Assembly: GCA_030590945.1 (NCBI GenBank)
Contig: JAUVBY010000001.1
Span: 167 to 64,166, forward strand
Direction of reading: 5' to 3'
From: Gammaproteobacteria bacterium
Lineage (GTDB): Bacteria; Pseudomonadota; Gammaproteobacteria; Arenicellales; Poriferihabitantaceae
DNA: 64,000 bases
In this document: one piece after another, positions 4,655 through 64,000 of the stretch
Layout of the letters: each line of letters opens with the position of its first letter
Numbering within the stretch: position 1 is the stretch's first letter
Program-made: the position numbers and the translations under genes
The notes under the pieces: model-generated
Database searches by the model: none
Seen by the model: only the letters and a program-made list of their open reading frames with translations
What the model was told of the DNA's origin: nothing

Positions 4655-5986
<1,332 letters not shown>

Positions 5987-8654: not shown

Positions 8655-8784
8655 GATGATTTAAATAAAATTTGTGCTGGAGAATGGATTCAGTTTTATA
8701 GGGCGCCAATAAACTGATTAAATGTTAACGCATCCTGTTCAGGTATAAAAGATCAGGGGAAAAATAGATGCCTATATCAGAAAA

Positions 8785-44205: not shown

Positions 44206-44234
44206 GGGGTGGTCGCTTCTATTAAATTGTTGAT

Positions 44235-44630: not shown

Positions 44631-44764
44631 AGTTTTTCCTCGTTGTTTAGGTGGATGTTCAGTGCATTTATCAGGCAAATCTGGATAGAAGACACTTTAC
44701 AACATCAAGTATACGTGCAATATATAGAATGAATACTGAAATATATGGCATTAATCATTCGAAT

Positions 44765-45655: not shown

Positions 45656-45698
45656 ATCCTCTCAATAAAGAGGAGAGTGGTGCCTTATGTGCGATGCT

Positions 45699-45914
45699 TT
45701 AATTACGCGGCATGTAAGCCGCAACAAGCAGCGACAGACCAATCGCTCCGAACAACAGGGGATGGGTTGTCAGAGTATGTAATATCCCGCTCAAAGTATC
45801 GTGCTGCATGTGGCTATGGCCGGTATGGGCGAGCACGCCTGATGAAAACAGTGCGGTGGCTGCCGTAATCGAAAGGGTGCCTAAGGTTTTTTTCCAGACG
45901 TTTTTGTAGATCAT
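45699..45914 (-). CDS. Small His-rich membrane protein resembling the N-terminus of HupE/UreJ nickel transporters
   Basis: 71 aa from the ATG at 45914. It has a signal-like segment ending ..GVLA|HTGHSHMQHD, then SGILHTLTTHP, and one TM helix. Full-length HupE/UreJ proteins are much longer (recall), so it may be a truncated remnant. Confidence 0.35.
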   Translation of the reverse strand: MIYKNVWKKTLGTLSITAATALFSSGVLAHTGHSHMQHDTLSGILHTLTTHPLLFGAIGLSLLVAAYMPRN

Positions 45915-45924
45915 AATAAACTCG

Positions 45925-47646: not shown

Positions 47647-48107
47647 GATAGACCTCGCTTGCTTAAGAAATTGTTAAGAATTTGATATTGCGCTTCTCGT
47701 TCACCGGTTTCGCTGCCGTCATCGGTATCGATTGACCAGGCGGTTCTGGCCATGCGCGCTGAGGTAGCAGCCTGTAGTGCAGGGCCGGCTTTTTTATATC
47801 CTTCCGGCATTAACGCGGCTTCGCAGGCGCGTGCGACAAAATACGCAGCCTGGGCTTTCCAGTCTCCTTCCGAGCCGCAACGTGTATGGCTTTCGATGGC
47901 GGCGGCTTTGACGGTTTTGAAACTGGCGGCCAGTTCAGATGGGGTCGCACCGGGGTCGGATGCCACGCCCACATTGTTGGCGATTCGACTATCGTCCGTC
48001 AGTTCAAGCACGTGCTCGGTAAATTGCGCGGCTAACTGGCGCTGTAAATTGCCATCCAGCGTTCCAGCCACTTCTCTGAATTGAGTTTCATTATTAATCG
48101 TGGTCAT
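47643..48107 (-). CDS. Hypothetical acidic, Ala-rich protein inserted between isp2 and hynL
   Basis: 154 aa with no motif I recognise. Its stop overlaps the hynL ATG (ATGA) and its start lies 2 nt after the isp2 stop, so it is translationally embedded in the operon. Confidence 0.55.
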   Translation of the reverse strand: MTTINNETQFREVAGTLDGNLQRQLAAQFTEHVLELTDDSRIANNVGVASDPGATPSELAASFKTVKAAAIESHTRCGSEGDWKAQAAYFVARACEAALMPEGYKKAGPALQAATSARMARTAWSIDTDDGSETGEREAQYQILNNFLSKRGLS

Positions 48108-48109
48108 GC

Positions 48110-49378: not shown

Positions 49379-50034
49379 GACTGGACCCCTTTGATGCCTG
49401 TCACAGCACCGTTATAAAAACGCGCCAGGAACAAGGTGAACGCATGGCTAAGTTTGGTGAATGGGATTGCGATCATCAGTAATTCGACGCTCATAATGTG
49501 CAGGGCGATTAACATCGGCCCGGAGAAACCGATTCGGTGAAACGCCATATAACCCGTGATCAGTGGCAAGGTGGTGAGCGCCCAGACAATATAGTCCATG
49601 GGCCCGGACAAATAACGCTTCACTTTATTGTTCAGGCGATTAATCAATACCGCGATCAAGGCCAGTATCGTTATTACTGCAAAGGCGTCTACGATGGTGG
49701 TCGGCAGCGCCGGCCAGCTCAGCCCGGTCAGTTTGCTGAATACGAGGATATGGGGCGCTAGCAGGAAGATCACTACGAACAGGCCTATATGAAATATATA
49801 ACCCGCCACAATGGTAAAGGTTGAGCGTTGGAAGGTTCCCGAATCCGGAACGGAACGGCTCACGATGGTGCGTAAGCCGCCCGTGGTAGCCGAGCCTTTG
49901 GGAGCTGCAAGATTTTCTTTTCGCCCCAACATCAGAATTTCGATGAGGCGCACAATTATGCCCATCACCAGAATGACGGTGGCAATTTCAAAAGCAGGGC
50001 CACGCGCCCATAATAACCATTCAGTAGCTGTCAT
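49375..50034 (-). CDS. isp1: Isp1: integral membrane b-type cytochrome-like subunit (NarI/DsrM-like)
   Basis: 219 aa with 5 TM segments and conserved His in the helices. It overlaps the isp2 start (ATGA). Confidence 0.75.
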   Translation of the reverse strand: MTATEWLLWARGPAFEIATVILVMGIIVRLIEILMLGRKENLAAPKGSATTGGLRTIVSRSVPDSGTFQRSTFTIVAGYIFHIGLFVVIFLLAPHILVFSKLTGLSWPALPTTIVDAFAVITILALIAVLINRLNNKVKRYLSGPMDYIVWALTTLPLITGYMAFHRIGFSGPMLIALHIMSVELLMIAIPFTKLSHAFTLFLARFYNGAVTGIKGVQS

Positions 50035-50047
50035 GATTGTTCCTCGT

Positions 50048-51190
50048 TTATGTCCCGGGGCTTAAATCGTCCAGGGTAGTGGTTTGATGTTCGCTCAACG
50101 CGCGTTTTTTATTCGCCTTGTTAAGCGCCCCTGCTGCGACACCCGCGGCCGCACCCGCCGCGACCGCGTACACAGCGGTTCGTGCGATATCTGTAGTTGG
50201 AGTAGACAGAGCTTCATAAAAACCACCGGCATCCCAGAATTTAGGTTCCGAGCAGCCCAGACAGGGGTGTCCCGCCTCGATCGGGAAGCTGGTTCCATCA
50301 TTCCACTTGGTTACCGCGCAGGCGTTGTAGGTAGTGGGCCCCTTGCAACCCAGTTTGTACAGGCACCAGCCTTTCCTGGCGCCTTCATCGTCGAAGGTTT
50401 CCGCGAATAAGCCCTTGTCATAGAAGGGTCGGCGATAGCAGCGATCATGAATACTCTGCCCGTAGAAAGCGACGGGACGCCCGAGTTGATCCAGTTCAGG
50501 CAGGCCGCCAAAGGTTAGAAAGTGCGCGAGTACGCCGGTGATTACCACCGGAATTGGTGGGCAACCTGGCACATTAACCACCGGCTTATCGGTAATGATC
50601 TCCTGTACGGAGACAGCGCCTGTCGGGTTTGGATCTGCGTTTGGCAGCCCGCCAAACGCCGAGCAGCTGCCCACGGCGATAATGGCTGCGGCGCCCGCGG
50701 CCGCCTCTTTGAGCATATCTTCATTACTGACACCGGCGATGGTTGAATAGCCCGGATTACCCAGGGGAATGGAGCCATCGACGACCAGCACGTAGTTGCC
50801 GTAATTTTCTTTCATCGCCTCTTCGCGTGCGGCTTCGGCAGCGTCACCGGCTGCGGCCTGCAAGGTGTGATGATAATCGAGTGAAATAGCATCAAATATC
50901 AGCCCCTCGATTGTGGGCGCGTGCGAACGTGTTAGCGACTCTGTGCAACCCGTACATTCCTGAAAAGATAACCATATCACCGATGGCCGGCGCGCGTTCT
51001 CCAGTGCTTCAGCGATGCGCGGAATCATTGTGGGAGGCAGGGCCATGAGCGAGGCTGTGGTGGCGCAGAATTTCAGAAAACCGCGCCGGCTAATGCCCTG
51101 GCGACGCAATGCTTCACCAACGGTTTCTCCTTGTGCCCCGGTGCTTTTAACTGCTGGGTTTAAGTCCATCGGGGATTTAACTGGTTCCAT
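50048..51190 (-). CDS. hynS: [NiFe] hydrogenase small subunit with a Tat signal
   Basis: The Tat motif is ISRRGFLKF and Fe-S ligands include ECTGCTES, GSCSAFGG and PGCPP. A hydrophobic C-terminal anchor is present. The ATG at 51190 has GGAGA 6 nt upstream; the tracked start at 51196 is also possible. Confidence 0.92.
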   Translation of the reverse strand: MEPVKSPMDLNPAVKSTGAQGETVGEALRRQGISRRGFLKFCATTASLMALPPTMIPRIAEALENARRPSVIWLSFQECTGCTESLTRSHAPTIEGLIFDAISLDYHHTLQAAAGDAAEAAREEAMKENYGNYVLVVDGSIPLGNPGYSTIAGVSNEDMLKEAAAGAAAIIAVGSCSAFGGLPNADPNPTGAVSVQEIITDKPVVNVPGCPPIPVVITGVLAHFLTFGGLPELDQLGRPVAFYGQSIHDRCYRRPFYDKGLFAETFDDEGARKGWCLYKLGCKGPTTYNACAVTKWNDGTSFPIEAGHPCLGCSEPKFWDAGGFYEALSTPTTDIARTAVYAVAAGAAAGVAAGALNKANKKRALSEHQTTTLDDLSPGT

Positions 51191-51623
51191 TATCATTCTC
51201 CGTAGAGGTCGTTTTTAGAGTATCGCCAAGTTGTTCGAGGCCGGCCTGAATGTCGCCTTCCTGAGCCTGCAAAATATCGGGGATCAGGGCAATTTCAATG
51301 TACTTTCCAAGTATCGTGCCGTCGGTATTGCTATGCGTAATCAGCCACACGCCGGGGTATTGAGTTTCTATGATGTCGCTACGCCCGAGTGCGTTGAGTT
51401 CAACCCTGACTTCGCCCTGGCCCAGTGCGGTTTCAATATGGGCTTCTTCACCCGGGGCCAATGGCATGCTACGCAGGTCGATGATGGTTTGTTCGCCTTT
51501 GTCCAGCAAGGCGCCGAGAGCATGGCGAACTTCATGCAGCAGGGGCGTGACGTTGCCCGTGAACTCTTCGGTTACCCTGACAGGAATGTCAAAATTGGCG
51601 GGCAGGGCATCGCCGCGATTCAT
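51177..51623 (-). CDS. hupH: HupH/HyaF-like hydrogenase expression/formation protein
   Basis: 148 aa. The pattern ..GNVTPLLHEVRHAL...IDLRSMPLAPGEEAHIETALGQGEVRV..GVWLI fits the HupH C-terminal domain family (recall). Confidence 0.6.
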   Translation of the reverse strand: MNRGDALPANFDIPVRVTEEFTGNVTPLLHEVRHALGALLDKGEQTIIDLRSMPLAPGEEAHIETALGQGEVRVELNALGRSDIIETQYPGVWLITHSNTDGTILGKYIEIALIPDILQAQEGDIQAGLEQLGDTLKTTSTENDNGTS

Positions 51624-52165
51624 GGCGAAATTTCCTCAAGATGGCTCGCAGGGAGCAATGTTTGGCCAACTGTGGGTAGTTGTTTCCAGTCTCTCAATAT
51701 TTTTTCAATTTCCTCGATGGCCTGCGGGATCGCAGCGGCAACGACAGGGCTGGGAAATTCACCCCAGTCGATTTTCTCAGCCTGAATGCCGACCAGTACG
51801 CGTGGTTCGGGCAGGCACTCAGTTAAACGGGCGATATCCAGTAAATCCAGCAGACTGACTTCATGTACGCTGCGTCTTGGCAGGCCGAGAAAACGATCCA
51901 TTTCCTCGTTGTGAAGGCAGCAGACGGTGCCGGGGGCCTGGTGGAAATTTGCTGCATCAATTACGATCAGCCGGCCGGCTTTTTCAATCCAGCTGGCGAG
52001 CGAAAAGCTCAAGGTGCCGCCATCAATATATTCAACACCGTCGATATCAGGATATTTGTCCTGCAGCGCATTTAATACATGAATGCCAATTCCCTCGTCC
52101 GAGAGCAGTGTGTTTCCAACCGCAAGTATTAAGGTATTTTTAGAACGCATTTTTATCTTTTCCAT
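51620..52165 (-). CDS. Hydrogenase maturation endopeptidase (HyaD/HupD/HynD family)
   Basis: 181 aa with the motif LILAVGNTLLSDEGIGIHV and a later His. The start may be the internal Met (MRSKN..). Confidence 0.85.
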   Translation of the reverse strand: MEKIKMRSKNTLILAVGNTLLSDEGIGIHVLNALQDKYPDIDGVEYIDGGTLSFSLASWIEKAGRLIVIDAANFHQAPGTVCCLHNEEMDRFLGLPRRSVHEVSLLDLLDIARLTECLPEPRVLVGIQAEKIDWGEFPSPVVAAAIPQAIEEIEKILRDWKQLPTVGQTLLPASHLEEISP

Positions 52166-52272
52166 ACCTTAATATATTAAGGGTTTTATGATTTTATTAT
52201 TTGACGAGCATCAAGGTTAGACGGGAAATGGTTTATTAGAATAGCTTCACCAAAAAAAAGAGGAATTAGTCT

Positions 52273-52536
52273 ATGTGCCTGGGTATCCCGATGCAGGTAA
52301 AGTCGATCGATCAGTATCAGGCGATTTGCGAGGCCAAAGGCATCGAGCGTGACGTAAGCCTGTTTATGCTACAGGATGAGGACATCAGGCCCGGTGATTT
52401 TGTGGTGGTGCATGTGGGTTACGCGATCCAGAAGATTTCTCAGCAGGAAGCACAATCAGCATGGGAAGTTTATGATCAGATGCTCGCAGCCGAAGATGCG
52501 CTGGCCGAAGAGCTGGTAGACGCTCCCGGCGCGTGA
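52273..52536 (+). CDS. hypC: Hydrogenase assembly chaperone HypC
   Basis: 87 aa beginning MCLGIPMQV. Confidence 0.92.
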   Translation: MCLGIPMQVKSIDQYQAICEAKGIERDVSLFMLQDEDIRPGDFVVVHVGYAIQKISQQEAQSAWEVYDQMLAAEDALAEELVDAPGA

Positions 52537-52543
52537 CACGCCC

Positions 52544-52909
52544 ATGCATGAGCTAGCGATTTGCCAGGCGCTAATGGATCAGGTCGATCAGATTGTTCTT
52601 GAGCAGCATGCGACAGGGGTGGCGAAAATTATTTTACAGATTGGGCCTTTGTCGGGTGTTGAGCCGCACTTGCTGAAGCAGGCCTTTCCTCTGGCCAGTG
52701 CGGGTACACTGGCGGAGCATAGCCTGTTGGAGATTAAACCACAGGCGATCGAGGTTGAATGCTCAAAGTGTAGCCAGCGTACGCTTGCGAAACCCAATCG
52801 ACTGGTGTGTGGGGCCTGTGGCGACTGGAAAACCCGTTTGATTAGCGGCGATGAAATGTTGCTGGAAAGTGTTGAACTTATTTGCGAAGAGGAGATGAAT
52901 CATGTGTGA
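52544..52909 (+). CDS. hypA: Hydrogenase nickel-insertion protein HypA
   Basis: 121 aa beginning MHELAICQ, with a zinc site CSKC...CGAC. Confidence 0.92.
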   Translation: MHELAICQALMDQVDQIVLEQHATGVAKIILQIGPLSGVEPHLLKQAFPLASAGTLAEHSLLEIKPQAIEVECSKCSQRTLAKPNRLVCGACGDWKTRLISGDEMLLESVELICEEEMNHV

Positions 52910-53726
52910 TACCTGTGGCTGTAACATTACAGATGGCAATGCGCACCTGGTAAAGCCGGGTGGTAAGTTGTCTTTGACCGCGTCGGGCAATGAAGCCGTA
53001 TCAGTGTTGCGTAGCTTGCTTCATGAAAACGATCATGCCGCCGCGCATAACCGCAGCCATTTTGACGAACATGGTGTACTGGCAATCAACCTGATGTCTT
53101 CGCCCGGAGCCGGGAAAACAGCCCTGCTGGAAGCGACGATACAAGCTCTGGGTGACCGTTATCGTTTTGCGGTGGTGGAAGGTGATCTTGAAACCGAGAA
53201 TGATGCTGAGCGTATACGGCGCCATGGAATTCCAGCGGTACAAATCACCACTGGCAGTGCCTGTCATCTGGATGCTCACATGGTGCATGATGCCCTGCAT
53301 GAACTGAATCTCGATGATATCGATGTATTATTTATAGAGAACGTGGGTAATCTGGTATGCCCGGCCAGTTTCGATCTGGGCCAACACTTAAATGTGACCT
53401 TATTGTCCGTGCCGGAAGGCGATGACAAGCCCGCCAAGTACCCGGTAATATTTCGCGTAGCGGATCTGGTGCTGCTGACCAAGGCCGACCTGTTGCCTGT
53501 ACTGGACGATTTCAGCCCCGAGAAAGCCGAACAAAATCTGCGTAACCTGGCTTCTGAGGCGCCTTTGTATACGGTGACCGTTAAATCAGTCCTCGCGCTT
53601 GAAAGCTGGTTGAACTGGCTGAAGGCTGAAGTTAAAGCTCAACGGGCGCGCGTTGCGAAAGGGGAGACATCGCAACCGGCGATCCAGCCGGAAGGTGCGG
53701 CATTGCATGAAAGCTCCCCTCTTTAA
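52902..53726 (+). CDS. hypB: Hydrogenase nickel-incorporation GTPase HypB
   Basis: 274 aa. The N-terminus is MCDTCGC, the P-loop is SSPGAGKT, and ENVGNLVCP is present. The last four codons and the stop lie inside MITE-like element Y. Confidence 0.92.
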   Translation: MCDTCGCNITDGNAHLVKPGGKLSLTASGNEAVSVLRSLLHENDHAAAHNRSHFDEHGVLAINLMSSPGAGKTALLEATIQALGDRYRFAVVEGDLETENDAERIRRHGIPAVQITTGSACHLDAHMVHDALHELNLDDIDVLFIENVGNLVCPASFDLGQHLNVTLLSVPEGDDKPAKYPVIFRVADLVLLTKADLLPVLDDFSPEKAEQNLRNLASEAPLYTVTVKSVLALESWLNWLKAEVKAQRARVAKGETSQPAIQPEGAALHESSPL

Positions 53727-53831
53727 CAAAGAAGGGTTGGGGGAGATTTGGGTGTTGCAAGCAGTTTTGGAATATCAATACCTTGTCTTCCGCTCAAATC
53801 CCCCTCTATCCCCCTTTAATAAAGGGGGAGG
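53714..53831 (+). mobile_element. MITE-like element Y (same family as 37392..37512)
   Basis: Both roughly 37-bp hairpin-containing termini match the reverse complement of element X. It spans the hypB 3' end and the hypB-hypD spacer. Confidence 0.75.
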
Positions 53832-53852
53832 TAATTCTGGAGCATTAAACCC

Positions 53853-54953
53853 ATGACCACTACCGCAAAAAAATGGCTGGAGCGTATTCATGCCTTGCCG
53901 CTTGAAGGCGTCACCAAAATTATGAATGTTTGCGGCGGGCATGAGCGTTCAATCACCATGGCTGGTTTACGAAAGGTTTTACCGGACGAAATTGAACTGG
54001 TGCCGGGGCCGGGTTGTCCGGTGTGTATTTGCCCGGAAGAGGACGTGTTTGAAGCGATCCAGCTGGCGCTGAATGAAGACATAATCCTGATTGCTTTTGG
54101 TGATATGCTGCGTGTGCCGGTAAACGTATCTAAAACTCGGGCACGTACGCTTGAACAGGCCAAAGCAGCCGGCGCCGATATTCGGCCGATCGCGACTCCC
54201 CGGGAGGCCGTTGATATTGCCGCTCAGAATCCGGATAAAGCCGTCGTATTTTTCGCCGCAGGATTTGAAACCACCACTGCACCAGTGGCGTCTATGTTAG
54301 TGCAGGGGGTGCCGAAAAATCTCTTCATACTGTTATCCGGCAGGCTCACCTGGCCCGCGGTGGCCATGTTACTCGATTCCGGCCAGGCCGCCTTTCAAAC
54401 GCTGATTGCACCGGGGCATGTCGCCACAGTAATGGGTCCCGAAGAATGGCAGTTTGTACCGGAGGAGCATAAAATGCCGGCAGCCGTTGCTGGATTCAGT
54501 CCGGAATCGCTGTTGGCAGCGATGTATTCGGTATTGCGTCAGAGGGTTGAAGGCAAGGCCTTCCTTGATAATTGTTATCCGGAGCTGGTTCGCGCCGGGG
54601 GCAACCCGACGGCGCAGGCCCAGCTAAAAACCTCGATGGACGTGGTGGATGCTAACTGGCGGGGAATCGGGGTAATTCCACAATCAGGCTTTGCTTTGAG
54701 TGAGGCGTATGCGCAACACAATGCGCGGAAGCAATTTCCCAGTTACGCCGAAGATGCGCGTAAACGCGCCGGCGAAATGCCGCCCGGTTGCGATTGCGCG
54801 AAAGTGGTGCTGGGCCAGATTTATCCGGATCAGTGTCGTTTGTATGCCAACGCCTGTGTCCCCAGGAATCCGGTGGGGCCGTGCATGGTGTCTGATGAAG
54901 GCGCTTGCCGGATATGGTGGTCGGGTGGTGTACGCAAAAACGCTGTTTCGTAG
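53853..54953 (+). CDS. hypD: Hydrogenase maturation protein HypD
   Basis: 366 aa with the motifs CGGHE, GPGCPVC and a C-terminal Cys cluster. Confidence 0.92.
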   Translation: MTTTAKKWLERIHALPLEGVTKIMNVCGGHERSITMAGLRKVLPDEIELVPGPGCPVCICPEEDVFEAIQLALNEDIILIAFGDMLRVPVNVSKTRARTLEQAKAAGADIRPIATPREAVDIAAQNPDKAVVFFAAGFETTTAPVASMLVQGVPKNLFILLSGRLTWPAVAMLLDSGQAAFQTLIAPGHVATVMGPEEWQFVPEEHKMPAAVAGFSPESLLAAMYSVLRQRVEGKAFLDNCYPELVRAGGNPTAQAQLKTSMDVVDANWRGIGVIPQSGFALSEAYAQHNARKQFPSYAEDARKRAGEMPPGCDCAKVVLGQIYPDQCRLYANACVPRNPVGPCMVSDEGACRIWWSGGVRKNAVS

Positions 54954-54992
54954 TTCTGGAAGCAATGGAGTTATCGATCAGCCCCGTCGACA

Positions 54993-55104
54993 GGATTGCG
55001 TCATTGAGGAAGAAAGTGACGTGGCAAATTACATGGATGACGTATTATGCAAACCACGAGAAAGGCATAAAACATCTGGATTGTCGCGCTACGCGCGCAA
55101 TGAC
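54993..55104. repeat. Short TIR-bearing MITE-like element in the hypD-hypF spacer
   Basis: GTCATTGAGGAAGAAAGTGACGTGGCAA (55000-55027) faces GGATTGTCGCGCTACGCGCGCAATGAC (55078-55104), giving GTCATTG...CAATGAC ends. The element is preceded by GGATTGC (54993-54999). Only a single copy is present in this window. Confidence 0.35.
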
Positions 55105-55112
55105 ATTGCAAA

Positions 55113-57419
55113 ATGAAAGATAAATCGGTTGCCCGGAAAATCTACGTAAGCGGTCGGGTTCAGGGCGTTGGCTTCAGGCCATATATTTACCGCCTCGCTG
55201 ATCACTGCCAGCTGACCGGTAGTGTGTGTAATCGCATGGGCCAGGTCGAAATTGTTGTGCAGGGCAGGGCTGAGCAGGTAGATCAGTTTGGCGCTGTTCT
55301 GGTCGAACTATCACCGCGGATTGCAAAACCATTTATTGTGTCCAGCAAAGCCGTGCCCCCGAAAGAGCGGGATAAATTTGAAATCTTGCCGAGTGAAGCA
55401 AAGGGCGAGGCCTCAATACATGTGCCGCCTGATTTTTTCACTTGCCCCGATTGCCTGGCGGAGCTGCGTGATCCGAAAAATAGGCGATACGCTTACCCCT
55501 TTATTAACTGCACCCAATGCGGGCCACGTTATACCCTGATCGAAGGCTTGCCATACGATCGGCCTAATACCAGCATGGCCGGTTTTAAACTGTGTGATGA
55601 TTGCAGGAAAGAATACGAGGCACCGCTGAATCGTCGTTTTCACGCGGAACCGATCGCCTGCCCGACGTGCGGGCCGGCACTTTGTTATGAATCGGCTGCG
55701 CTGAAAACAGGTACTGATCTGGCGCCGCTGAGGCAGGCTGTAAAGGCTTTACGTAATGGTCAGATTGTGGCGGTAAAAGGAATTGGTGGTTACCACCTGA
55801 TATGTGATGCGCGTAATAAAGCTGTGGTTGATCGCCTGCGCGCATCCAAGCATCGTCCGCATAAGCCCCTTGCGGTGATGTTCGTGGCGGAAGCTTATCG
55901 GGAAGATTCTGAATTAAACCGCGCAGTGATTGTGCCGGATGCGCAGTGGGACCGACTTAATCAGCCGGATCGGCCAATAGTATTGTTGCGCAAGCAAGGC
56001 GATTGCGGGCTGGCTGAATCAATAGCGCCCGGGCTAAATGAAATAGGAGTGATGCTGGCGTACAGCCCGTTACACGATGTGTTGCTGCGTGAATTTGGCG
56101 GGCCAGTGGTGGCCACTTCCGGGAACCTGAGTGGTGAGCCGGTAATTACTTCAAGTGCTATGGCTGCGCGCCGACTTGCGGGAGTGGCGGATGCCTTTTT
56201 GCATCACAACCGACCCATTGTTCGCCCGGCAGATGATTCTGTACTGCGTTTTATCGCCGGCCGTCCGCGGACAATGCGTTTAGGGCGCGGTTTGGCACCG
56301 CTGGAGCTGACCTTGCCCTTTAGCTTGCCGGAACCCGTTCTGGCGCTTGGGGGGCATATGAAAGTGACAGTTGCACTCGCGTGGGGCCGGCGAATAGTGG
56401 TTTCTCCGCATATTGGTGAAATGGAGTCGCCACGTAGCCTTAGGGTTTTTGAGCAGGTGCTGGGTGATCTTCAGGCTTTGTACGGCGTTGTTGCGAAGCG
56501 ACTGATTTGTGATGCCCACCCTGCGTATGCCAGTCATCGATGGGCGTTGAAACAGGATTTACCCGTCAATACTGTGTGGCATCATCACGCGCATGCTTCA
56601 TCGCTGGTTTTAGAGCCCATGTCCACATTTTCCGGGCAGGAAAAAATGCTGGCTTTCACTTGGGACGGAGTCGGCTGGGGGCCGGATGAAACACTTTGGG
56701 GTGGAGAGGCCTTGCTGGGTACCCCGGGGAACTGGCAGAGATTTGCGCATTGGCGGCCTTTTAATGTGCCCGGAGGTGATCGGGCCGGCCGCGAGCCGTG
56801 GCGCAGTGCGGCGGCTTTGTGTTGGGCCCTGGGGATTAATTATTCGCGGTCCGAAGCGCTGCGGGAAAATACTATAGAACTGCTGCACACCGCCTGGGAG
56901 AAAAGGATTAACGCCCCGCAAACGAGCGCAGTGGGGCGCCTGTTTGATGGTGCCTCTGCGCTGTTGGGTCTTGTCGAGCAGGCGAGTTTTGAGGGGCAGG
57001 GGCCAATGTATCTCGAAGCACTTGCCGAAGGGATTCGTGGTTCGACGATATTATTGCCCATCCATGTTTTACCGGACAAGTCAGGTTTAAAGGGCAAGGG
57101 GTACCAAATCGACTGGGCGCCGCTGGTCAGGCATATGCTGGATGACGAACTAAGCCCCGGACAGCGCGCGGCAGACTGGCATGAATCGATGGCGAAAGCC
57201 TTGCTGGTGGTTTCCGAGCTGGCAAGGAAAGAACACGCAATAGAGCGTATCGGTCTGTCAGGGGGTGTGTTTCAGAATCGCGTTCTGAGTGAGCGGGTGA
57301 TCCAGCTGTTAAAGAAACAGGGATTCGATTATCAGTTTCCCGGGCAGGTTCCAGTGAATGATGGTGGCTTATGCGTGGGGCAGATCGTGGAATATTTATA
57401 TCAACAAAATTCAGGTTAA
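55113..57419 (+). CDS. hypF: Carbamoyltransferase HypF
   Basis: 768 aa. It carries an acylphosphatase domain (VSGRVQGVGFRPYIYRLA), two CxxC-x18-CxxC zinc fingers, and YrdC-like and Kae1-like domains. Confidence 0.93.
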   Translation: MKDKSVARKIYVSGRVQGVGFRPYIYRLADHCQLTGSVCNRMGQVEIVVQGRAEQVDQFGAVLVELSPRIAKPFIVSSKAVPPKERDKFEILPSEAKGEASIHVPPDFFTCPDCLAELRDPKNRRYAYPFINCTQCGPRYTLIEGLPYDRPNTSMAGFKLCDDCRKEYEAPLNRRFHAEPIACPTCGPALCYESAALKTGTDLAPLRQAVKALRNGQIVAVKGIGGYHLICDARNKAVVDRLRASKHRPHKPLAVMFVAEAYREDSELNRAVIVPDAQWDRLNQPDRPIVLLRKQGDCGLAESIAPGLNEIGVMLAYSPLHDVLLREFGGPVVATSGNLSGEPVITSSAMAARRLAGVADAFLHHNRPIVRPADDSVLRFIAGRPRTMRLGRGLAPLELTLPFSLPEPVLALGGHMKVTVALAWGRRIVVSPHIGEMESPRSLRVFEQVLGDLQALYGVVAKRLICDAHPAYASHRWALKQDLPVNTVWHHHAHASSLVLEPMSTFSGQEKMLAFTWDGVGWGPDETLWGGEALLGTPGNWQRFAHWRPFNVPGGDRAGREPWRSAAALCWALGINYSRSEALRENTIELLHTAWEKRINAPQTSAVGRLFDGASALLGLVEQASFEGQGPMYLEALAEGIRGSTILLPIHVLPDKSGLKGKGYQIDWAPLVRHMLDDELSPGQRAADWHESMAKALLVVSELARKEHAIERIGLSGGVFQNRVLSERVIQLLKKQGFDYQFPGQVPVNDGGLCVGQIVEYLYQQNSG

Positions 57420-57430
57420 ATGATCCTAAT

Positions 57431-57660
57431 TTCCCCAGTTGGACAGGGTATAGTGTGCTTCTGTGGTGGTGCAGGGCAAGGCGTAACTGCGCGGAATGGT
57501 CATTCCCTTTCAAGCCGTTACAACGTGGCCATACGCCAGCACAGGGGTGCAATATACCCTGTAGCGCCTTTAACCCATACAGTGAAAAGAAAAAACACAC
57601 CCTTTTTAATTGATTCATATGCTTATCCATCTTTCATAGCGGTCAACTGAGGATTTTAGG
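57431..57660 (+). repeat. Copy B of the roughly 230-bp structured repeat, located inside the hyp operon
   Basis: It is homologous to 30866..31096 and fills almost the whole hypF-hypE spacer. Its conserved 3' tail TAGCGGTCAACTGAGGATTTTAGG supplies the only SD-like GAGGA (57649-57653), 10 nt before the hypE ATG. Confidence 0.7.
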
Positions 57661-57663
57661 ATT

Positions 57664-58668
57664 ATGCGAGACAAATATATATCTCTGGCACATGGTAACG
57701 GTGGCATCTATATGCGTGAGCTCATTGAGCAGCTTTTCGCGCGTTACCTGGGCAATCCGGATCTCGATGTTCAGGCAGATGCCGCACATTTGCAGTTAAG
57801 CTCCAGCGATATCCTGTTCACTACCGACGGGTTCACCGTGCAGCCGCTGGAGTTCCCTGGCGGTGATATTGGATCATTAGCAGTGCATGGCACCACCAAT
57901 GATCTGGCGGTTTCGGGGGCTAAGCCCGTGTATCTGAGCCTGAATGCGTTTATCGAAGAGGGTCTGGAGATCTCGGTGCTTGAGCGTATTATTCAGAGCC
58001 TGGCGAGAGCCGCAAAGCAGGCAGGTGTCGTAGTCGCAGCGGGTGATACTAAGGTGCTGCCACGCGGTGAAGGTGGCGGACTGTATCTTGCGACCACGGG
58101 CATTGGTATACGCCAGAACCCGTACCCGCTGGGGCTGGACCAGATTCAGGCCGGGGATAAGATGCTGGTCAGCGGTTCGGTCGGTGATCACGGTATTGCG
58201 GTGATGCTGGCGCGCGAGCAATTTGGTCTGCGTGGTGATTTACAATCCGATTCGGCCAGCGTACTGCCCTTTACAGAGTGCCTTCTGGACCTGCCCGGCT
58301 TGCATTTTATGCGTGATCCGACTCGAGGTGGTCTGGCGACGGTTTGCCACGAGTTGAATCGTGCTACCGGCCTGGGAATCCGACTAAAACAGGATGACAT
58401 ACCGGTTAATGAGCCCGTGCAGTCGGTCTGTGATATGTTGGGATATGATCCGCTCTATCTGGCCTGTGAAGGGCGCGTAGTTGCGGTGCTTGCCGCTGCG
58501 GATGCCGATGAGGCGCTGCAACGCTGGGCGGAGTTACCCGGCGGAGAGTCAGCTTCGATATTTGCTGAGTTCGGTAATGATCATGACTCGGTCTTACTGG
58601 AAACCCATTTCGGGGGGGAGAGAATTCTGGAAGAACTTGAAGACGATCCCCTGCCACGCATTTGCTAG
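57664..58668 (+). CDS. hypE: Hydrogenase maturation protein HypE
   Basis: 334 aa with an AIR-synthase-like fold, ending in the conserved ..PRIC. Confidence 0.92.
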   Translation: MRDKYISLAHGNGGIYMRELIEQLFARYLGNPDLDVQADAAHLQLSSSDILFTTDGFTVQPLEFPGGDIGSLAVHGTTNDLAVSGAKPVYLSLNAFIEEGLEISVLERIIQSLARAAKQAGVVVAAGDTKVLPRGEGGGLYLATTGIGIRQNPYPLGLDQIQAGDKMLVSGSVGDHGIAVMLAREQFGLRGDLQSDSASVLPFTECLLDLPGLHFMRDPTRGGLATVCHELNRATGLGIRLKQDDIPVNEPVQSVCDMLGYDPLYLACEGRVVAVLAAADADEALQRWAELPGGESASIFAEFGNDHDSVLLETHFGGERILEELEDDPLPRIC

Positions 58669-58693
58669 TGCTCTTTCGGTGAAAGAGCACTAG
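58665..58693 (+). terminator. Strong hairpin at the hypE stop (possible terminator, no T-tract)
   Basis: CTAGTGCTCTTT-CGGTG-AAAGAGCACTAG forms a 12-bp stem that includes the TAG stop. Confidence 0.4.
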
Positions 58694-58843: not shown

Positions 58844-59809
58844 TTAAAACCCTCGTTTTTGCTGGGCGCGTATCAGGTAGTTCATGCGGTTTAGATCCCG
58901 TTCGTCCAGAGTCAACGCCGTTTCTACCCAGATGTCCACCACAGACATCAGTGATTCCCTTGATACCGGGTCAGCCACATTGATTGCACTGCGCAATGCG
59001 CGGGCCGCGTGGCCTGTTTTTTTGTGCTGTTCGATGTAATCATTGACCGCCGCTTCACCCTGGCCTTCATCGGCCAGCACGTCTACAATGCCCATGTCGA
59101 ACAGTTCTTCAGCGCCATAGGTTCGCCCGCTCAGGATAAATTTTTCGGCTTCGACCGGTGATAGTCTTCTGGCCAGAAACTGGTAGGCACCCATGCCTGG
59201 AAACATATTAAACAGTACTTCGGGCAGGCCCATGGTGGCTTGTCGTTCAGCTACCAGTACGTTTGCAGCTAATGCGGTTTCCATGCCCCCGCCCATAGCG
59301 CTACCCTTGACCAGCGCAATGGTGGTCATGGGCAGGCCCATGGCGATAGAGTTCTGGTAGATAAGCTCTACGCAGATGGTGGCGTATTCGGTCAGGCGTT
59401 TTCGATCGCCCTGCTTGATCAGTGAATAAAAGTAGGGCAGATCGCCGCCTAAGTTAAAGGTGTCGGCAATTTCCGAGTTGATCACCATGTAGGCCGGGTG
59501 TTTGGAATTTCTATCATTTTCAGTGCGGTTCTGATAATGATTGGCGAAATTTGACTGAAACGTGCGAAATGCCTGTATTAATTCCAGGGTGAATTTCGGA
59601 GGGCAATCCGGTCGTAAGCTCAGCCAGAACGTCGAAGAATCGACATCAAATCTCGTATCAAAAAACGGGTTGTCAGATTCAGGATTGCGACTGGTTGTCG
59701 AAAATAGTTGATGGACCGTAGATTTTGTTGCATAGTCGGTAGTGGGGTAGATTGCGTCATATTTTAGGTCACGCTTGGTTGTGTCTGTGTCTAGTGCTCG
59801 TACTAACAT
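58844..59809 (-). CDS. rpfF: RpfF-like crotonase (DSF-family signal synthase homologue)
   Basis: 321 aa. The motifs FNLGGDL, GGGMETALAANVLVAERQATMGLPEVLFNMFPGMGAY and the C-terminal ..IWVETALTLDERDLNRMNYLIRAQQKR closely parallel my recollection of Xanthomonas RpfF. Confidence 0.7.
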   Translation of the reverse strand: MLVRALDTDTTKRDLKYDAIYPTTDYATKSTVHQLFSTTSRNPESDNPFFDTRFDVDSSTFWLSLRPDCPPKFTLELIQAFRTFQSNFANHYQNRTENDRNSKHPAYMVINSEIADTFNLGGDLPYFYSLIKQGDRKRLTEYATICVELIYQNSIAMGLPMTTIALVKGSAMGGGMETALAANVLVAERQATMGLPEVLFNMFPGMGAYQFLARRLSPVEAEKFILSGRTYGAEELFDMGIVDVLADEGQGEAAVNDYIEQHKKTGHAARALRSAINVADPVSRESLMSVVDIWVETALTLDERDLNRMNYLIRAQQKRGF

Positions 59810-60034
59810 GGTATTACTCCTCTGAAGTTAAGGACACAAATGAAGGTTTTTCATCCGTGCCAAGGTTGGCTTAGTTGACAGAATACAATAGCAATAGACC
59901 AAAAACACTGTTTTGCCGCAATAATTTCACCGCTGTTCAGCTTGTGTATGGGTAGCAGATTTAAATTTATTTGCTGGTAAACAAGCTATAATGCCCCGCA
60001 TAAATCAATAAACCGCGAGACAAACTAACTGCTC

Positions 60035-60304
60035 ATGACTCAAACAAGCTACACCGCTGAAGAAATCCGCCAGAAAGTGTATTCAGTCGTATTTGAAGTA
60101 TCCGGGATTGAAACTTCGAAGCTGGATGATAAATTAACCGTTAACGATGATATTGCGCCCAGATCACTTGATCGTGTCACTCTGTTTATGGCGCTGGAAG
60201 ATGAGTTTTCTACGTCCGTTGCGGAAGAGGAATTGCAGGATATTGTAACGCTGGGAGATTTAATTAAATATGTGGAACGCAAGGCTGGAATAAGCCCGGA
60301 CTGA
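60035..60304 (+). CDS. Acyl carrier protein (stand-alone, atypical)
   Basis: 89 aa. The phosphopantetheine-site region IAPRSLDRVTLFMALEDEF corresponds to the canonical DSLDxVELVMALEEEF. Confidence 0.75.
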   Translation: MTQTSYTAEEIRQKVYSVVFEVSGIETSKLDDKLTVNDDIAPRSLDRVTLFMALEDEFSTSVAEEELQDIVTLGDLIKYVERKAGISPD

Positions 60305-60326
60305 GTTCTAAGATATTGTTTTAGCT

Positions 60327-61700
60327 ATGGAAAGCAAAAACAAAGTAGTCATTACCGGCATGGGCACACTCTGCCCGCTGGGATTATCAACAGCTGAATT
60401 CTGGCACGCCTGTCTGGAGGAAAAACAGGCGGTTTCGTCTATACCCGGTAAGTGGTTGGAATATGCTGACTATAGCTCCCGATATTGGGCACCCTTGCCC
60501 GAAATTGATTATTCTCAATTTGGTATTAACCGAATTGAAGCCCTGCGCCTGGATCCGGTCAGTAAACTGAGCCTTGCCGCGGCCGGACAAGCGCTCGACG
60601 ATGCCGGCGTCAAAGTTCGCCCTGTTAATCGTAAGCAAACTATCTTTGAGCTAGACGGTCTCGATCAGGAACGCTGTGGAGTAATCCTGGGAACAGGAAT
60701 AGGCGGTTTGAATACGACCCTTGACTCACATACGGTTCATCTTTTTACGCGATATCGCCAGGAGATTGAGAACCTGCTGGATACACGTGAACTGGGACCC
60801 GATACGCAACGAGAGTTGCAAACGCTATTAAAGCGCATGGACTACCCGCATCGCTATAATCCCTTCACCGTGTCGATGATCATGAATAATTCGATATCGG
60901 CGAATATTGCCATCCGATATCAATGTAAAGGGCCGAATAAAGTTATTTCCATTGCCTGTGCCTCAGGCACGGCCGCGCTGGGGCAGTCTTACGAAGAAAT
61001 TCAGAACGGACGCCTTGATTTTGTGATTTCGGGCGGTGCGGAGTACAAATACGATAAAACAGGAGCGGTGTTCAGGGGGTATGACATCGCGGGTACCCTG
61101 GCGCATGATTTTGCCTCGCCTCAGGACGCGAACCGACCTTTCGATAAAAATCGTAACGGGTTTTTATTTAGCGAAGGCGCAGCTGCGATCCTTATACTTG
61201 AGGAGAAACAACATGCGCTTGGGCGGGGGGCTAACATCATTGCGGAAATTAGTGGCTATTCAGAAAGTTTCGATGCGTATAGCATTATGAGTCCGGAGCC
61301 GGATGGAGTACAGATAGAGCGCATGATTCGAAGTGTATTGCAGCAGGCGGATGTGGCGCCGGATGAACTCGATTATATAAATGCACATGGTACCGGCACG
61401 GTGGCCAATGATGAAATCGAATGCCGTGTCATCGAACGGGTATTCGGTGACAAGCCCGTAGTGAATTCTACCAAGTCATGGGTTGGTCACACTATTGGCG
61501 CAAGTGGCGCCTTAGAGGCGCAAGTCGCCGCACTTAGTATCCGGGACCAGATTACGCATGGCAACGCCAATCTGGAAAATCCAATTTCAGATATCCGGCT
61601 ACTAAAAACACAGGAAAACCTTGATATTTCTTCAGCTTTGACGCATTCTTTCGCATTCGGTGGGCATAATTGCGCACTGATGCTTAGAAAATCGACCTGA
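60327..61700 (+). CDS. Beta-ketoacyl-ACP synthase (KAS I/II-like, Cys-His-His)
   Basis: 457 aa with the active-site Cys in SIACASGTAALG and the His motifs INAHGTGT and VGHTIGASGALE. An extra segment of about 35 aa (..TRYRQEIENLLDTRELGPDTQRELQTLLKRMDYPH..) is absent from FabF/FabB as I recall them. Confidence 0.8.
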   Translation: MESKNKVVITGMGTLCPLGLSTAEFWHACLEEKQAVSSIPGKWLEYADYSSRYWAPLPEIDYSQFGINRIEALRLDPVSKLSLAAAGQALDDAGVKVRPVNRKQTIFELDGLDQERCGVILGTGIGGLNTTLDSHTVHLFTRYRQEIENLLDTRELGPDTQRELQTLLKRMDYPHRYNPFTVSMIMNNSISANIAIRYQCKGPNKVISIACASGTAALGQSYEEIQNGRLDFVISGGAEYKYDKTGAVFRGYDIAGTLAHDFASPQDANRPFDKNRNGFLFSEGAAAILILEEKQHALGRGANIIAEISGYSESFDAYSIMSPEPDGVQIERMIRSVLQQADVAPDELDYINAHGTGTVANDEIECRVIERVFGDKPVVNSTKSWVGHTIGASGALEAQVAALSIRDQITHGNANLENPISDIRLLKTQENLDISSALTHSFAFGGHNCALMLRKST

Positions 61701-61732
61701 AGGAGACTCTGTAGCGAACAGATTTAAGCAAA

Positions 61733-63868
61733 ATGTTTGAACGAATTCGGCAAATTGTCAGTGACAAAATTCCATCTGAGGTGTCCTCGGAGTTGGAGCA
61801 GGCGCTGCTGCGTACTGCGCTCGGCACACTAGTCGTGATCTTTTTGCTTGCAACAAATGTACTAAGTGGGTTGCAGCTAAGCCTTATGTTGCCCGCTTAC
61901 CTGGGTGCCATTTACGCATTCCCGGTGCTGGTCATACAGCAGGGGTTTTCCAATATTATACGCAGAGTGCTGGGTATTTTGCTCGATATTGGTATGATCT
62001 CTCTGGCCATTCATCTGGCCGGGGAGCAGGGCGCACCGCTGTTGTTTTTGTATTTATGGATTACCATCGGTAACGGTTTTCGCTACGGCATACCATATTT
62101 ACTCGCCGCCATGGCCGTCAGTGTCCTCTGTTTTGCACTGGTAATATCCGGCAGTGATTACTGGCAGGAGCACATCATGGTTAGCATCGGCGTTCTGCTC
62201 GCTATGGTGGTTACGCCTCTGTACGCTGCGGGCCTGATAAGCCGGCTTGAAGAGGCCCGGGCTAAAGCGGAATCTGCTAACCAGGCGAAGAGTAATTTTG
62301 TCGCCAACATGAGTCACGAAATTCGCACGCCGCTCAATGGTGTCATCGGCTTGAGTGATTTGCTTGCGCAGACCAGCCTGAACAAGACACAGACTGAAAT
62401 GGTTGAAACCATTCAAAGTTCAGCACATTCGTTATTGTTCCTGGTCAACGACATCCTGGATTTTTCCAAAATTGAAGCCGGAGAATTCGAATCACACGCC
62501 AAGGAGTTTGATCTGCACGGCGTCGTCAATGCAACCGTGCGCATGTTGAGCCCACAGGCTGAATCAAAAGGTGTTTCACTTACCGCCGATATCGATTCCG
62601 GTATCCCGGACTATGTGATGGGCGATGATCAGCATATCAGGCAGGTGCTGATCAATCTGGTTGGCAATGCGGTTAAATTTACCGAAAAGGGCGAAATAGA
62701 CGTTCGTGTAACACTGGGCGAAGAACGTGAACGGAATTTGTCGGTTCGTTTTGAGATTATAGATACCGGGGTCGGTATCCCTTATGAAGATCAGGGGCGA
62801 ATTTTCGAAAGCTTCCAGCAGGCGGATAACTCCGAAGCTCGTAAGCATGATGGTACAGGTTTGGGTGTAACCATCAGCCGTGAATTGATACGAATTATGG
62901 GAGGTGACTTGCGGCTGCAAAGTACCCCCGGACAGGGCTCGCGTTTCTGGTTTACGCTGAATCTTCAGTTATGTGAAGAGGAAGAAATCCTGCTTCCGGA
63001 AGAGACTGCCGCTTCATTAAATAACACCATCATACCATTTGTCCGCCCGGGTGTTACTGCCACGGCCGACAACACAAACCTGGAAATACTGGTAGCAGAA
63101 GATAACGTCGTCAATCGAAAAGTTATCACCATGATTCTTGAAAATGCAGGGTTTAAGGTTCACACGGTTAATGATGGTGCCCAGGCGCTCGATGCGCTTG
63201 ACGATAATCGATATGACCTGGTCATTGTCGACATGCAAATGCCAATTATGGGTGGTATTGAAGCAATGAAAATGTACCGCATGGGGAATCCGCAGCATGT
63301 CAATACGATTCCTTTTCTTGTCTTGACGGCCAACGCGACCACCGACGCCCGGAAAATGTGTCTTGAAGCCGGTGCCGATGCATTTTTGACCAAACCGGTC
63401 GATTCAGGACGTTTGTTGCATTATGTGACAGCGTTGACCGGGATTGAGGAAGAATACAAGCAGGTGCGCAAGAGGGAAAATGAATCCCGCTCAAAGGTAT
63501 TTGACCCGGAGATTTTGCTCGAGCTTAAGATGATTCGAGAAACTGCGGGCGCATTGGAGGACATGATTGAAATTTTCCAGAGCAGCGCCAGCGAGCTTCG
63601 ACAATCAATGGCGGACGACCTGGCGAGTAATAACATCCAGTTGTTTAAGGATCATGCGCATGCAATGAAAGGTAGTGCGGCGAATGTGGGGGCCAACCGA
63701 ATTGCGGATGCCTGCCACCAGGCAAAAGCGCTGCTGCCGGGAAGCCTGCAATCTTCGGGGCGTGAACTGCTGGCCGTTCTAGCTAATGAATTCAGTCAAT
63801 TTGATAAAACGTTCGCCTCATTTTCCGCCGAACGGAATAACGACAGTAGCAATACAACGGATATTTAA
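61733..63868 (+). CDS. rpfC: RpfC-like hybrid sensor histidine kinase (TM sensor-HisKA-HATPase-REC-HPt)
   Basis: 711 aa. An N-terminal ..[12 protein letters not shown].. segment is followed by about 5 TM helices. The H-box is [14 protein letters not shown], and N/G boxes are present. The receiver contains [14 protein letters not shown] and the HPt contains [12 protein letters not shown]. Confidence 0.75.
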
Positions 63869-63917: not shown

Positions 63918-64000
63918 ATGAAAAAACTTGAAGTCACCTTACTCAAACCTTCGAAATACCGACTTGACGGTATGCTGGAACGTTTCGAATCGGGCTTTAT
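63918..64000 (+). CDS. 5' end of an unidentified ORF running off the window
   Basis: The ATG at 63918 opens a frame to the window edge (MKKLEVTLLKPSKYRLDGMLERFESGF). It is too short to assign. Confidence 0.3.
   Translation, partial: MKKLEVTLLKPSKYRLDGMLERFESGF

Follow-up and report, generated by a model that had tools for sequence, protein, structure and literature searches.

Near one end of a 64,000-nt stretch of DNA from a gammaproteobacterium of the Arenicellales (assembly GCA_030590945.1, contig JAUVBY010000001.1; the whole stretch is what we call the window), a crotonase gene and its neighbors probably make up a signaling locus belonging to the family of diffusible signal factors (DSF), the cis-2-unsaturated fatty acids, in which an RpfF-type synthase is served by a private miniature fatty-acid synthase. 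The components and the signaling logic are known; what is new is that an RpfF-type synthase is coupled to a private module made of an acyl carrier protein (ACP), a ketosynthase (KS), and a radical S-adenosylmethionine (rSAM) enzyme (or, elsewhere, a methyltransferase).

DSF-family signaling is known from plant and human pathogens, where RpfF alone skims the signal from general fatty-acid synthesis; enzymes of its family dehydrate a 3-hydroxyacyl-ACP to a cis-2-enoyl thioester and then hydrolyze that thioester (PMC4504480). The 3-hydroxyacyl-ACP precursors come from fatty-acid synthesis (PMC5941067 and PMC4542539, both in excerpt). Because RpfF enzymes take 3-hydroxyacyl-ACP and not CoA substrates (PMC4504480; PMC5941067 in excerpt), an ACP partner makes biochemical sense. 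But what would such an enzyme do with a carrier protein and a condensing enzyme of its own?

The crotonase, RpfF-like and thus a candidate DSF synthase, occupies positions 58844–59809 on the minus strand (321 aa; an open reading frame with Pfam ECH_1/ECH_2 matches). A divergent intergenic region of 225 bp (59810–60034) separates it from a plus-strand series that begins with a stand-alone ACP of 89 aa (60035–60304; Pfam PP-binding), continues with a FabF-like elongating KS of a distinct subfamily (60327–61700, 457 aa; Pfam ketoacyl-synt N- and C-terminal domains) and an RpfC-like hybrid sensor kinase (61733–63868, 711 aa; Pfam HisKA, HATPase_c, Response_reg, and Hpt), and closes with the first 27 codons of a class-B-like rSAM gene (63918–64000) that is cut by the end of the window and would encode ~503 aa when complete. 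An initial annotation of this DNA, made from the letters alone, had described the first four of these genes; an open-reading-frame check found all four intact and their coordinates exact, and strands and coordinates agree that the crotonase is transcribed divergently from the others. That annotation had spoken of a three-gene unit opposite the crotonase, which holds for the ACP, the KS, and the kinase, and had overlooked the fifth gene, which starts at 63918. The plus-strand genes follow one another at gaps of 22, 32, and 49 nt, and a scan of the window locus found no terminator-like sites between them (its promoter-like matches at the locus were at chance level); the rSAM gene is probably cotranscribed with the ACP, the KS, and the kinase.

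Within the divergent region, the block gCCAAGGTTGGCTt (59859–59872) together with AGAATAC (59880–59886), 50–77 nt upstream of the crotonase start, is invariant in an alignment with three related loci (L001, L002, and L003), the remainder of the region having diverged. It may serve as a site for a regulator or as a promoter element.

The candidate synthase and its partners

Is the crotonase RpfF-like, as had been proposed? Set against proteins of solved structure, it scores 196 bits (E = 6e-57) with RpfF of Xanthomonas campestris pathovar campestris (Xcc; 3m6m), 196 bits with 7zq7, 145 bits with 6dgn (RpfF), and 144 bits with the Burkholderia cenocepacia synthase BCAM0581 (5fus), whereas ordinary enoyl-CoA hydratases reach at most 54 bits and DspI (5wyb) reaches 53; the three-way comparison with RpfF, BCAM0581, and DspI that the initial annotation had called for thus comes out at 196, 144, and 53 bits. 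(A DspI-type synthase was considered and rejected on that merely 53-bit score.) Its match to Pfam ECH_1 is 73 bits, and it carries the motifs FNLGGDL (residues 118–124) and GLPEVLFNMFPGMGAY (residues 194–209). The two catalytic glutamates are both in place: Gly122, Gly174, Glu177, and Glu197 of the window protein align with Gly86, Gly138, Glu141, and Glu161 of Xcc RpfF, and their equivalents are invariant in 98 of 98 aligned relatives, three solved RpfF proteins included. In RpfF, the oxyanion residues Gly86 and Gly138 have a role in the thioesterase activity, and catalysis depends critically on Glu141 and Glu161 (PMC9040811). Public annotation of such genes is generic (“enoyl-CoA hydratase,” “DSF synthase,” and, for the KS, “3-oxoacyl-ACP synthase II”). 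The tree that we built for the crotonases is a neighbor-joining one and supports no claims about gain or loss.

Further evidence lies in the company that the crotonase keeps. Among its relatives at 45–87% identity, nine loci carry the ACP, and seven of those carry the KS. In L002 (crotonase 67% identical, on a 3.38-Mb contig), the ACP, KS, and kinase genes run divergently from the crotonase as they do here; L003 (74%) has the same arrangement with the rSAM gene added after the kinase; L084, L085, and L087 (49%, 56%, and 45%) have the ACP-KS-kinase arrangement of these two; and L086 (48%) has ACP and KS divergent from the crotonase, with the kinase adjacent on the other strand. L001 (87%) retains the ACP before its contig end cuts the set, L006 (48%) has the ACP with a partial KS and a partial rSAM gene at a contig end, and L004 (50%; positions 4244–7674 of a metagenome-assembled genome of the Arenicellales) has the ACP and an RpfC-like kinase beside the crotonase and lacks the KS. 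A sensitive profile search over the first 83 loci found such ACPs in 11 of them, and in the window as well; each lies beside the crotonase, as do further homologues in L084–L087, L090–L091, and L170–L172.

The set also emerges when one starts from the KS. With loci chosen blind from KS matches, five of five had rSAM, ACP, KS, crotonase, and RpfC-like kinase together. For the KSs P0221, P0217, and P0222, long contigs were the sole criterion of choice; each belongs to an rSAM-ACP-KS set that is accompanied by an RpfF-like crotonase and an RpfC-like kinase (their loci are L170–L172, and two of the three have a regulator joining a receiver to an HD-GYP domain, REC-HD-GYP). A metagenome scan with the KS gave 80 loci dominated by ordinary FabF, and 3 of the 80 are of the window type among the matches listed: L090 and L091, the only full-length ones (48%), which have rSAM, ACP, KS, and crotonase on one strand, and L148, a partial KS fragment. 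The same scan served as a negative control, the crotonase being found in 0 of the 77 ordinary FabF loci (at most 36% KS identity). L090 is the most complete of all, with genes for the channel FadL, the rSAM enzyme, the ACP, the KS, and the crotonase on one strand and, converging on them from the opposite strand, genes for a REC-HD-GYP regulator, a GGDEF protein, and an RpfC-like kinase.

Because the set recurs in many independent contigs, and does so in at least four gene orders, the arrangement is, to judge by these neighborhoods, far beyond chance adjacency. The initial annotation had suggested a dedicated ACP/KS pair, and that suggestion has gained ground, since the pair accompanies the crotonase whether one searches from the crotonase or from the KS, and does so in several gene orders; the comparative data support the view that the ACP and the KS are dedicated partners of the crotonase, not stray genes of fatty-acid synthesis, and strengthen the idea that the acyl chain would be built on a private carrier.

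There is a further group that is informative here. In L008, L021, L046, and L050 (~5000–9000 in each), a separate clade of crotonases, the ACP and KS genes run divergently from the crotonase gene and are followed by one for a cyclopropane-synthase-type methyltransferase; a GGDEF-EAL protein adjoins in three of the four, and the RpfC-type kinase is absent. It looks like the same theme with another tailoring enzyme and another type of receptor. We take this clade to show independently that RpfF-type enzymes tend to be accompanied by tailoring of the acyl chain. Two other loci from the genome scan described below (L043 and L058) have still other gene orders.

As to the ACP itself, the initial annotation had called it atypical and stand-alone, and both words fit: it has an RSLD motif, its Pfam PP-binding match is marginal (21.0 bits against a cutoff of 20.8), and it lies below every NCBIfam ACP cutoff (the best being 58.1 against 71). 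It matches ACPs in the PDB with E values down to 6e-12, and its Ser44, which aligns with Ser36 of Escherichia coli AcpP, the phosphopantetheine site, is invariant in 14 of 14 sequences (AcpP included).

The KS, described beforehand as a Cys-His-His elongating enzyme, is one: Cys211, His354, and His388, along with Lys383, each have their counterpart in the alignment with E. coli FabF. Because the ACP serine is invariant and the Cys-His-His-Lys set is complete, both proteins look functional. Against the FabF equivalog TIGR03150, the KS scores 347.9 bits, short of the cutoff of 493.75, and it has two insertions relative to FabF, one of ~12 aa near residues 97–108 and another of ~31 aa near residues 140–172. 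Both are common to relatives down to 41% identity; in the alignment, neither FabF nor the KSs of the other clades linked to RpfF have them. An AlphaFold (AF2) model (pLDDT 87.8, pTM 0.87) predicts the short insertion to be a beta-hairpin, with confidence, and the long one to be a helical hairpin, with moderate confidence, followed by what is modeled as a disordered loop at 175–185; the model's best structural matches are FabF enzymes 408–431 residues long, at a query-normalized template-modeling score of ~0.8. The long insertion is presumably part of the cap, the region by which the acyl pocket is shaped. Window-type KSs reach 48–50% identity, and ordinary FabF enzymes at most 36%; a database search returned more than 120 cluster representatives of the window type at 46–98% identity, mostly of 446–466 aa. 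On these comparisons, we regard the KS as a separate subfamily found with RpfF-like genes.

What do the 27 visible codons of the fifth gene tell us? They match, at 85% identity, the beginning of a 503-aa protein encoded after the kinase in L003 (4362–5873), and it is from this syntenic orthologue that we predict the properties of the full-length enzyme and the content past 64000. The initial annotation had recommended looking downstream of 64000 for a response regulator or output gene; what runs past that point is the rSAM gene, its remainder being predicted from L003. The L003 protein has a CxxxCxxC motif and a Radical_SAM domain, with a weak B12-binding match (E = 0.0075). Its best NCBIfam models are PhpK, BchE, “lipid biosynthesis B12-binding/radical SAM protein,” HpnJ, and HpnR, and its best solved relatives are 9ccb (an unnamed radical SAM protein) and AprD4, both at 46.9 bits. 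In this superfamily, the activity met most often is methylation of an unactivated carbon. Homologues sit within the same gene set in L006, L087, L090, L091, L170, L171, and L172, and the rSAM enzyme is the best conserved partner of all: between L003, standing for the window's clade, and the distant loci found through the KS, it is 55–57% identical, compared with 48–50% for the KS, 42–46% for the crotonase, and 28–34% for the ACP.

A side observation concerns what lies upstream of these sets. In three unrelated contigs, chemotaxis genes directly precede rSAM-ACP-KS-crotonase (L090, 932–3602; L170, 1–4641; and L172, 409–3050): cheR, cheD, and cheB in L170 and L172, with cheW and a gene for a methyl-accepting chemotaxis protein also in L170, and cheB in L090. 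In L090, the gene for FadL, an outer-membrane fatty-acid channel, lies between cheB and the rSAM gene.

The kinase and its likely output

If the crotonase makes a signal, the kinase is the natural candidate to hear it. Hydropathy and Pfam together give a 24-residue N-terminal tail, five strongly hydrophobic segments, and then HisKA, HATPase, REC, and HPt; this matches the published topology of RpfC, with a sensor region of 22 residues and five helices (PMC5391125). When residues 1–175 of the kinase served as the query of an iterative search over the 88 loci with an RpfF-like gene, this input domain recurred in the kinases of 70 of them. Glu20, Arg77, Asp85, Gly113, Gly115, Arg117, and Gly119 (the last four within the motif GNGFRYG, residues 113–119) are kept in every kinase aligned there. 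At the position of Glu20, 75 kinases could be aligned, every one of them beside an RpfF-like gene, and all 75 have the Glu; its RpfC counterpart, Glu19, is conserved in all RpfC-type input domains (PMC6536496); the window stretch S19-E20-x-x-Q23 parallels the essential Ser18, Glu19, and Gln22 of RpfC (PMC5391125). The receiver domain finds its best stand-alone match in the PDB in the REC domain of RpfC (3m6m_D, co-crystallized with RpfF; 84.8 bits, E = 4e-23). Architecture, input domain, and receiver domain, then, all agree with the earlier description of the kinase as RpfC-like. Searched by itself, the input domain gave two unnamed fragments in the protein database and generic names only in a tblastn search of plasmids; the link to Xcc RpfC itself is thus drawn from published residues, the N-terminal comparison given below, and the receiver domain.

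Where would the phosphate go? It had been noted that the window holds no HD-GYP RpfG, and it does not; it had also been suggested that the output branch may differ. A REC-HD-GYP (RpfG-like) regulator stands beside the kinase in L090, L170, and L172, and a REC-PAS-GGDEF-EAL regulator often stands behind the kinase in the genome-scan loci. Because relatives carry such regulators beside the kinase, the output here would still be turnover of cyclic di-GMP (c-di-GMP), the regulator simply being unlinked.

Two observations on the relatives belong here. In L090 (11115–12263, minus strand) and L172 (10598–11719, minus strand), an RpfC-type membrane input domain is fused directly to GGDEF, and each fusion is encoded between the RpfC-like kinase and the REC-HD-GYP regulator; these fusions, which recall RpfH, may act as another receptor of the same signal, of the one-component kind. 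In L002 (5499–5828, plus strand), a stand-alone Hpt protein of 109 aa is encoded just past an RpfC-like kinase that has an HPt domain of its own.

A proposed private carrier, and other readings

How might these parts work together? The route that we infer would begin with the dedicated ACP being made holo by the housekeeping AcpS and loaded with malonate by the housekeeping FabD. The dedicated KS would condense an acyl primer with this malonyl-ACP to give a 3-oxoacyl-ACP, a housekeeping FabG-type reductase would convert it to the 3-hydroxyacyl-ACP, and the rSAM enzyme would tailor the acyl chain, C-methylation, the commonest chemistry of its superfamily, being one possible reaction. The crotonase would then dehydrate the 3-hydroxyacyl group on the private carrier to a cis-2-enoyl thioester and hydrolyze the thioester, releasing the signal. 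In such a scheme, the private carrier would fix both the chain length and the decoration, and it would shield the bulk acyl-ACPs from the promiscuous thioesterase activity of RpfF (RpfF also cleaves other acyl-ACPs, for which RpfB compensates in Xanthomonas; PMC4504480). Shielding of this kind fits the absence of a linked rpfB: neither rpfB nor rpfG (REC-HD-GYP) is linked to the locus within the window, and the sole AMP-binding ligase in the window lies 40 kb away. The RpfC-like kinase would detect the signal through its membrane input domain and pass phosphate from His to Asp to HPt and on to an unlinked response regulator that controls c-di-GMP. Because the ACP, the KS, and the rSAM enzyme probably share an operon with the receptor, autoinduction is plausible.

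A number of findings weigh against this account, and we set them out together. First, the crotonase scores 222 bits against the RpfF equivalog NF053515, its second-best model, far short of the cutoff of 550; since it does pass the cutoff of PRK08788, “crotonase family protein” (319.8 bits against 177), we place it in a separate branch of the RpfF-like family and do not call it an orthologue of Xanthomonas RpfF. Second, a scan of species-representative genomes gave 80 more distant crotonase loci at 38–50% identity among the matches listed, and ~70 of the 80, again among the matches listed, have neither ACP nor KS, most consisting only of a crotonase convergent with an RpfC-like kinase; the module is thus an add-on and not a requirement. 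Even where the ACP is present, the ~590-nt gap between ACP and kinase in L004 gives no KS match, so that the KS is either not always needed or not always linked. Third, genes for a ketoreductase, a malonyl transferase, and a phosphopantetheinyl transferase are absent at the locus, and housekeeping enzymes must therefore accept an ACP with an altered recognition helix: the recognition motif reads RSLDR in place of DSLDT, the Asp before the Ser having been replaced by Arg. Fourth, the L003 rSAM protein is below the cutoff, and far below, for all B12-rSAM families of NCBIfam, and AprD4, among its two closest solved relatives, is a diol dehydratase and not a methylase. Fifth, in the window, L002, and L003, a response regulator does not adjoin the set. 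Finally, the direct comparison of the kinase with Xcc RpfC used an N-terminal sequence that was checked only against the residue numbering in PMC5391125, with which it agrees, and we take its BLASTP result (40% identity over 106 residues, E = 3e-23) as a supported lead.

What other readings are there? The most serious of them, which we nonetheless consider unlikely, is that rSAM, ACP, KS, and crotonase make a specialized lipid or secondary metabolite that is not a signal, such as a tailored membrane or surface fatty acid, with the crotonase as the dehydratase or thioesterase of the pathway and the kinase regulating that pathway or sensing something else. Sets of rSAM, ACP, and KS are typical of lipid biosynthetic clusters, the third-best NCBIfam model of the rSAM enzyme is a lipid biosynthesis protein by name, chemotaxis genes adjoin the set in L090, L170, and L172, and, a point that counts against our own account as well, enzyme activity, export of the product, and response to a signal are inferences throughout. 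This reading has to contend with a kinase with an RpfC-type input that accompanies the set in nearly every locus, with the RpfG-like HD-GYP or REC-GGDEF-EAL regulators beside the set, with the fatty-acid channel FadL in L090, and with the signals of the characterized RpfF relatives, which are free 2-enoic acids released by those enzymes (PMC4504480).

A second reading keeps the signal and changes the chemistry. If the crotonase acted mainly as a thioesterase on the 3-oxoacyl form of the private carrier, the product would be a beta-keto acid, or a methyl ketone after decarboxylation, and no ketoreductase would be needed. A reductase gene is indeed absent from all of the loci examined, and RpfF enzymes do have broad thioesterase activity (PMC4504480), but both of the dehydration glutamates are strictly conserved, the housekeeping FabG is universally available, the Xanthomonas DSF precursor is itself supplied by a FabG-type reductase encoded elsewhere (PMC5941067 in excerpt), and such a route would be without precedent in the RpfF family; we think it improbable. 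The last alternative, an ordinary CoA-dependent hydratase or the enoyl-CoA hydratase of polyketide beta-branching with the ACP and KS as stray paralogues that lie beside a two-component system by chance, can point to the generic public names and the missed RpfF equivalog, and it is effectively excluded by the co-occurrence data; the gap between the RpfF and hydratase scores, the absence of an HMG-CoA synthase, the conservation of the set over 42–87% crotonase identity in both search directions and all of those gene orders, the distinct KS subfamily with its own insertions and 48–50% as opposed to at most 36% identity, and the crotonase-free FabF loci leave it very little room. Three known cluster types were considered and rejected along the way: a polyketide beta-branching cassette (there is no HMG-CoA synthase, and the KS has its active Cys) and the OleABCD and aryl-polyene clusters (the gene content is unfit).

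We return, then, to an RpfF-type synthase with a private carrier and ask what would follow. A bolder form of the idea, which we offer tentatively, is that rSAM-ACP-KS-RpfF is an assembly line for a new class of DSF, with chain length and a radical modification set on a private carrier and insulated from bulk lipid synthesis, widespread in uncultured marine and sediment Proteobacteria, and the first fatty-acid quorum signal to be made by a miniature fatty-acid synthase. If this is true, new signal structures are predicted: an unactivated carbon would be modified, by a methyl branch or in another way, the SAM methyltransferase of the sister clade would add a methyl or cyclopropane group, and one could account for branched DSF-like signals in bacteria without branched-chain fatty-acid synthesis. 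The arrangement would also be a natural solution to the draining of acyl-ACP pools by the RpfF thioesterase, the role of RpfB in Xanthomonas, and it would provide a compact and portable set of four to five genes for heterologous expression and for finding both molecules and receptors. The carriers of the module form a large group of Proteobacteria, for the most part uncultured (the KS clusters number more than 120), with a sister group in which the cyclopropane-synthase-type methyltransferase takes the place of the rSAM enzyme.

Known systems and the rest of the window

The closest known system is the rpf cluster of Xcc (rpfB-rpfF and rpfC-rpfH-rpfG). The likenesses are substantial: the catalytic glutamate pair and the oxyanion glycines of the crotonase; a kinase with a short tail, five membrane segments, a HisKA-HATPase-REC-HPt layout, and the conserved glutamate of the input domain; and, among the relatives, a kinase that has a REC-HD-GYP regulator as its neighbor and a synthase and kinase that are often convergent (PMC4504480 for Xcc). 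The differences are just as plain. The window locus has its own ACP, a distinct FabF-like KS, and an rSAM gene, whereas Xcc draws its 3-hydroxyacyl-ACP from general fatty-acid synthesis and owes the methyl branch to a leucine-derived primer (PMC4504480; PMC5941067 in excerpt), and the window has no linked rpfB or rpfG and a crotonase well below the RpfF equivalog cutoff.

In B. cenocepacia, BCAM0581 (RpfF_Bc) is paired with RpfR (PAS-GGDEF-EAL), and the signal is BDSF, the Burkholderia DSF. BCAM0581 is likewise an RpfF-family synthase and has been shown to act on 3-hydroxyacyl-ACP (PMC4504480). The GGDEF-EAL output is another likeness, many relatives of the window locus having REC-PAS-GGDEF-EAL and the methyltransferase clade GGDEF-EAL, but the Burkholderia sensor is a soluble PAS receptor in place of a membrane RpfC-type kinase, and the Burkholderia system is without a dedicated ACP, KS, or rSAM enzyme. 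A precedent for devoting fatty-acid machinery to DSF and not to bulk lipid is FabG2 of Xanthomonas (XCC0416), a fatty-acid-synthesis paralogue and long-chain 3-oxoacyl-ACP reductase devoted to supply of the DSF precursor (PMC5941067 in excerpt); it is a single reductase that uses the housekeeping ACP, whereas the window locus duplicates the carrier and the condensing enzyme and links them to the synthase.

Outside the DSF family, there are two systems worth comparing. The dialkylresorcinol signal of Photorhabdus, a cell-cell signal, is made by DarABC, in which a ketosynthase (DarB) and an ACP (DarC) are likewise dedicated to the task, but by formation of a resorcinol ring and with a LuxR-type receptor; to our knowledge, no crotonase is involved, and the system is unrelated to RpfF/RpfC. 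The lipid clusters of TIGR04072 place a class-B-like, B12-binding rSAM enzyme beside an ACP and a KS, as the window-type loci do. By analogy, such a neighborhood suggests radical tailoring of an ACP-bound acyl chain. The window-type rSAM enzyme is not a TIGR04072 member (82.6 bits against a cutoff of 360), and those clusters lack the RpfF-type crotonase and the RpfC-type kinase.

A full-text search of the literature found no description of an RpfF-type synthase in an ACP-KS-rSAM arrangement, and a review of DSF signaling has only the RpfC/RpfG and RpfR routes, with substrates derived from fatty-acid synthesis (PMC4504480). The remark in the initial annotation that it knew of no described rpf locus of this composition can therefore stand; any suggestion that it is unique cannot, the module being widespread.

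The rest of the window, which has a GC content of ~50%, places the locus next to hydrogenase and betaine-catabolism genes, and an Rfam scan of the window found no rRNA or other RNA gene. Between a pirin gene and the crotonase, a block of ~15.5 kb (43211–58693) is missing from L001, which is otherwise syntenic at 81–85% identity and has its crotonase ~270 nt from pirin. The block contains a glutathione S-transferase-like gene, a LysR regulator, hypB, hypD, hypF, and hypE, and an Isp-type [NiFe] hydrogenase (45925–51196) with a CCG/Fer4 protein between its subunits. A second indel relative to L001 (39000–42291) covers a TRAP transporter. Where hypE and the crotonase gene converge, the gap between them contains a perfect inverted repeat (13 bp, with a loop of 3 nt; 58665–58693) that overlaps the stop codon of hypE.

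Elsewhere in the window lies a cluster for the catabolism of choline, betaine, and dimethylglycine, with BetA (35716–37380), BetB (37560–39017), two dimethylglycine dehydrogenase-like genes (31097–33544 and 8785–11244), and a fusion of URO-D with a B12-binding domain (27315–29177). The same cluster holds an MttB-family open reading frame (33541–35112, minus strand), inside of which Rfam places a match to the pyrrolysine insertion element PYLIS_3 (33945–34044, minus strand; 58 bits); the frame has no in-frame stop and is probably a nonpyrrolysine homologue of MttB.

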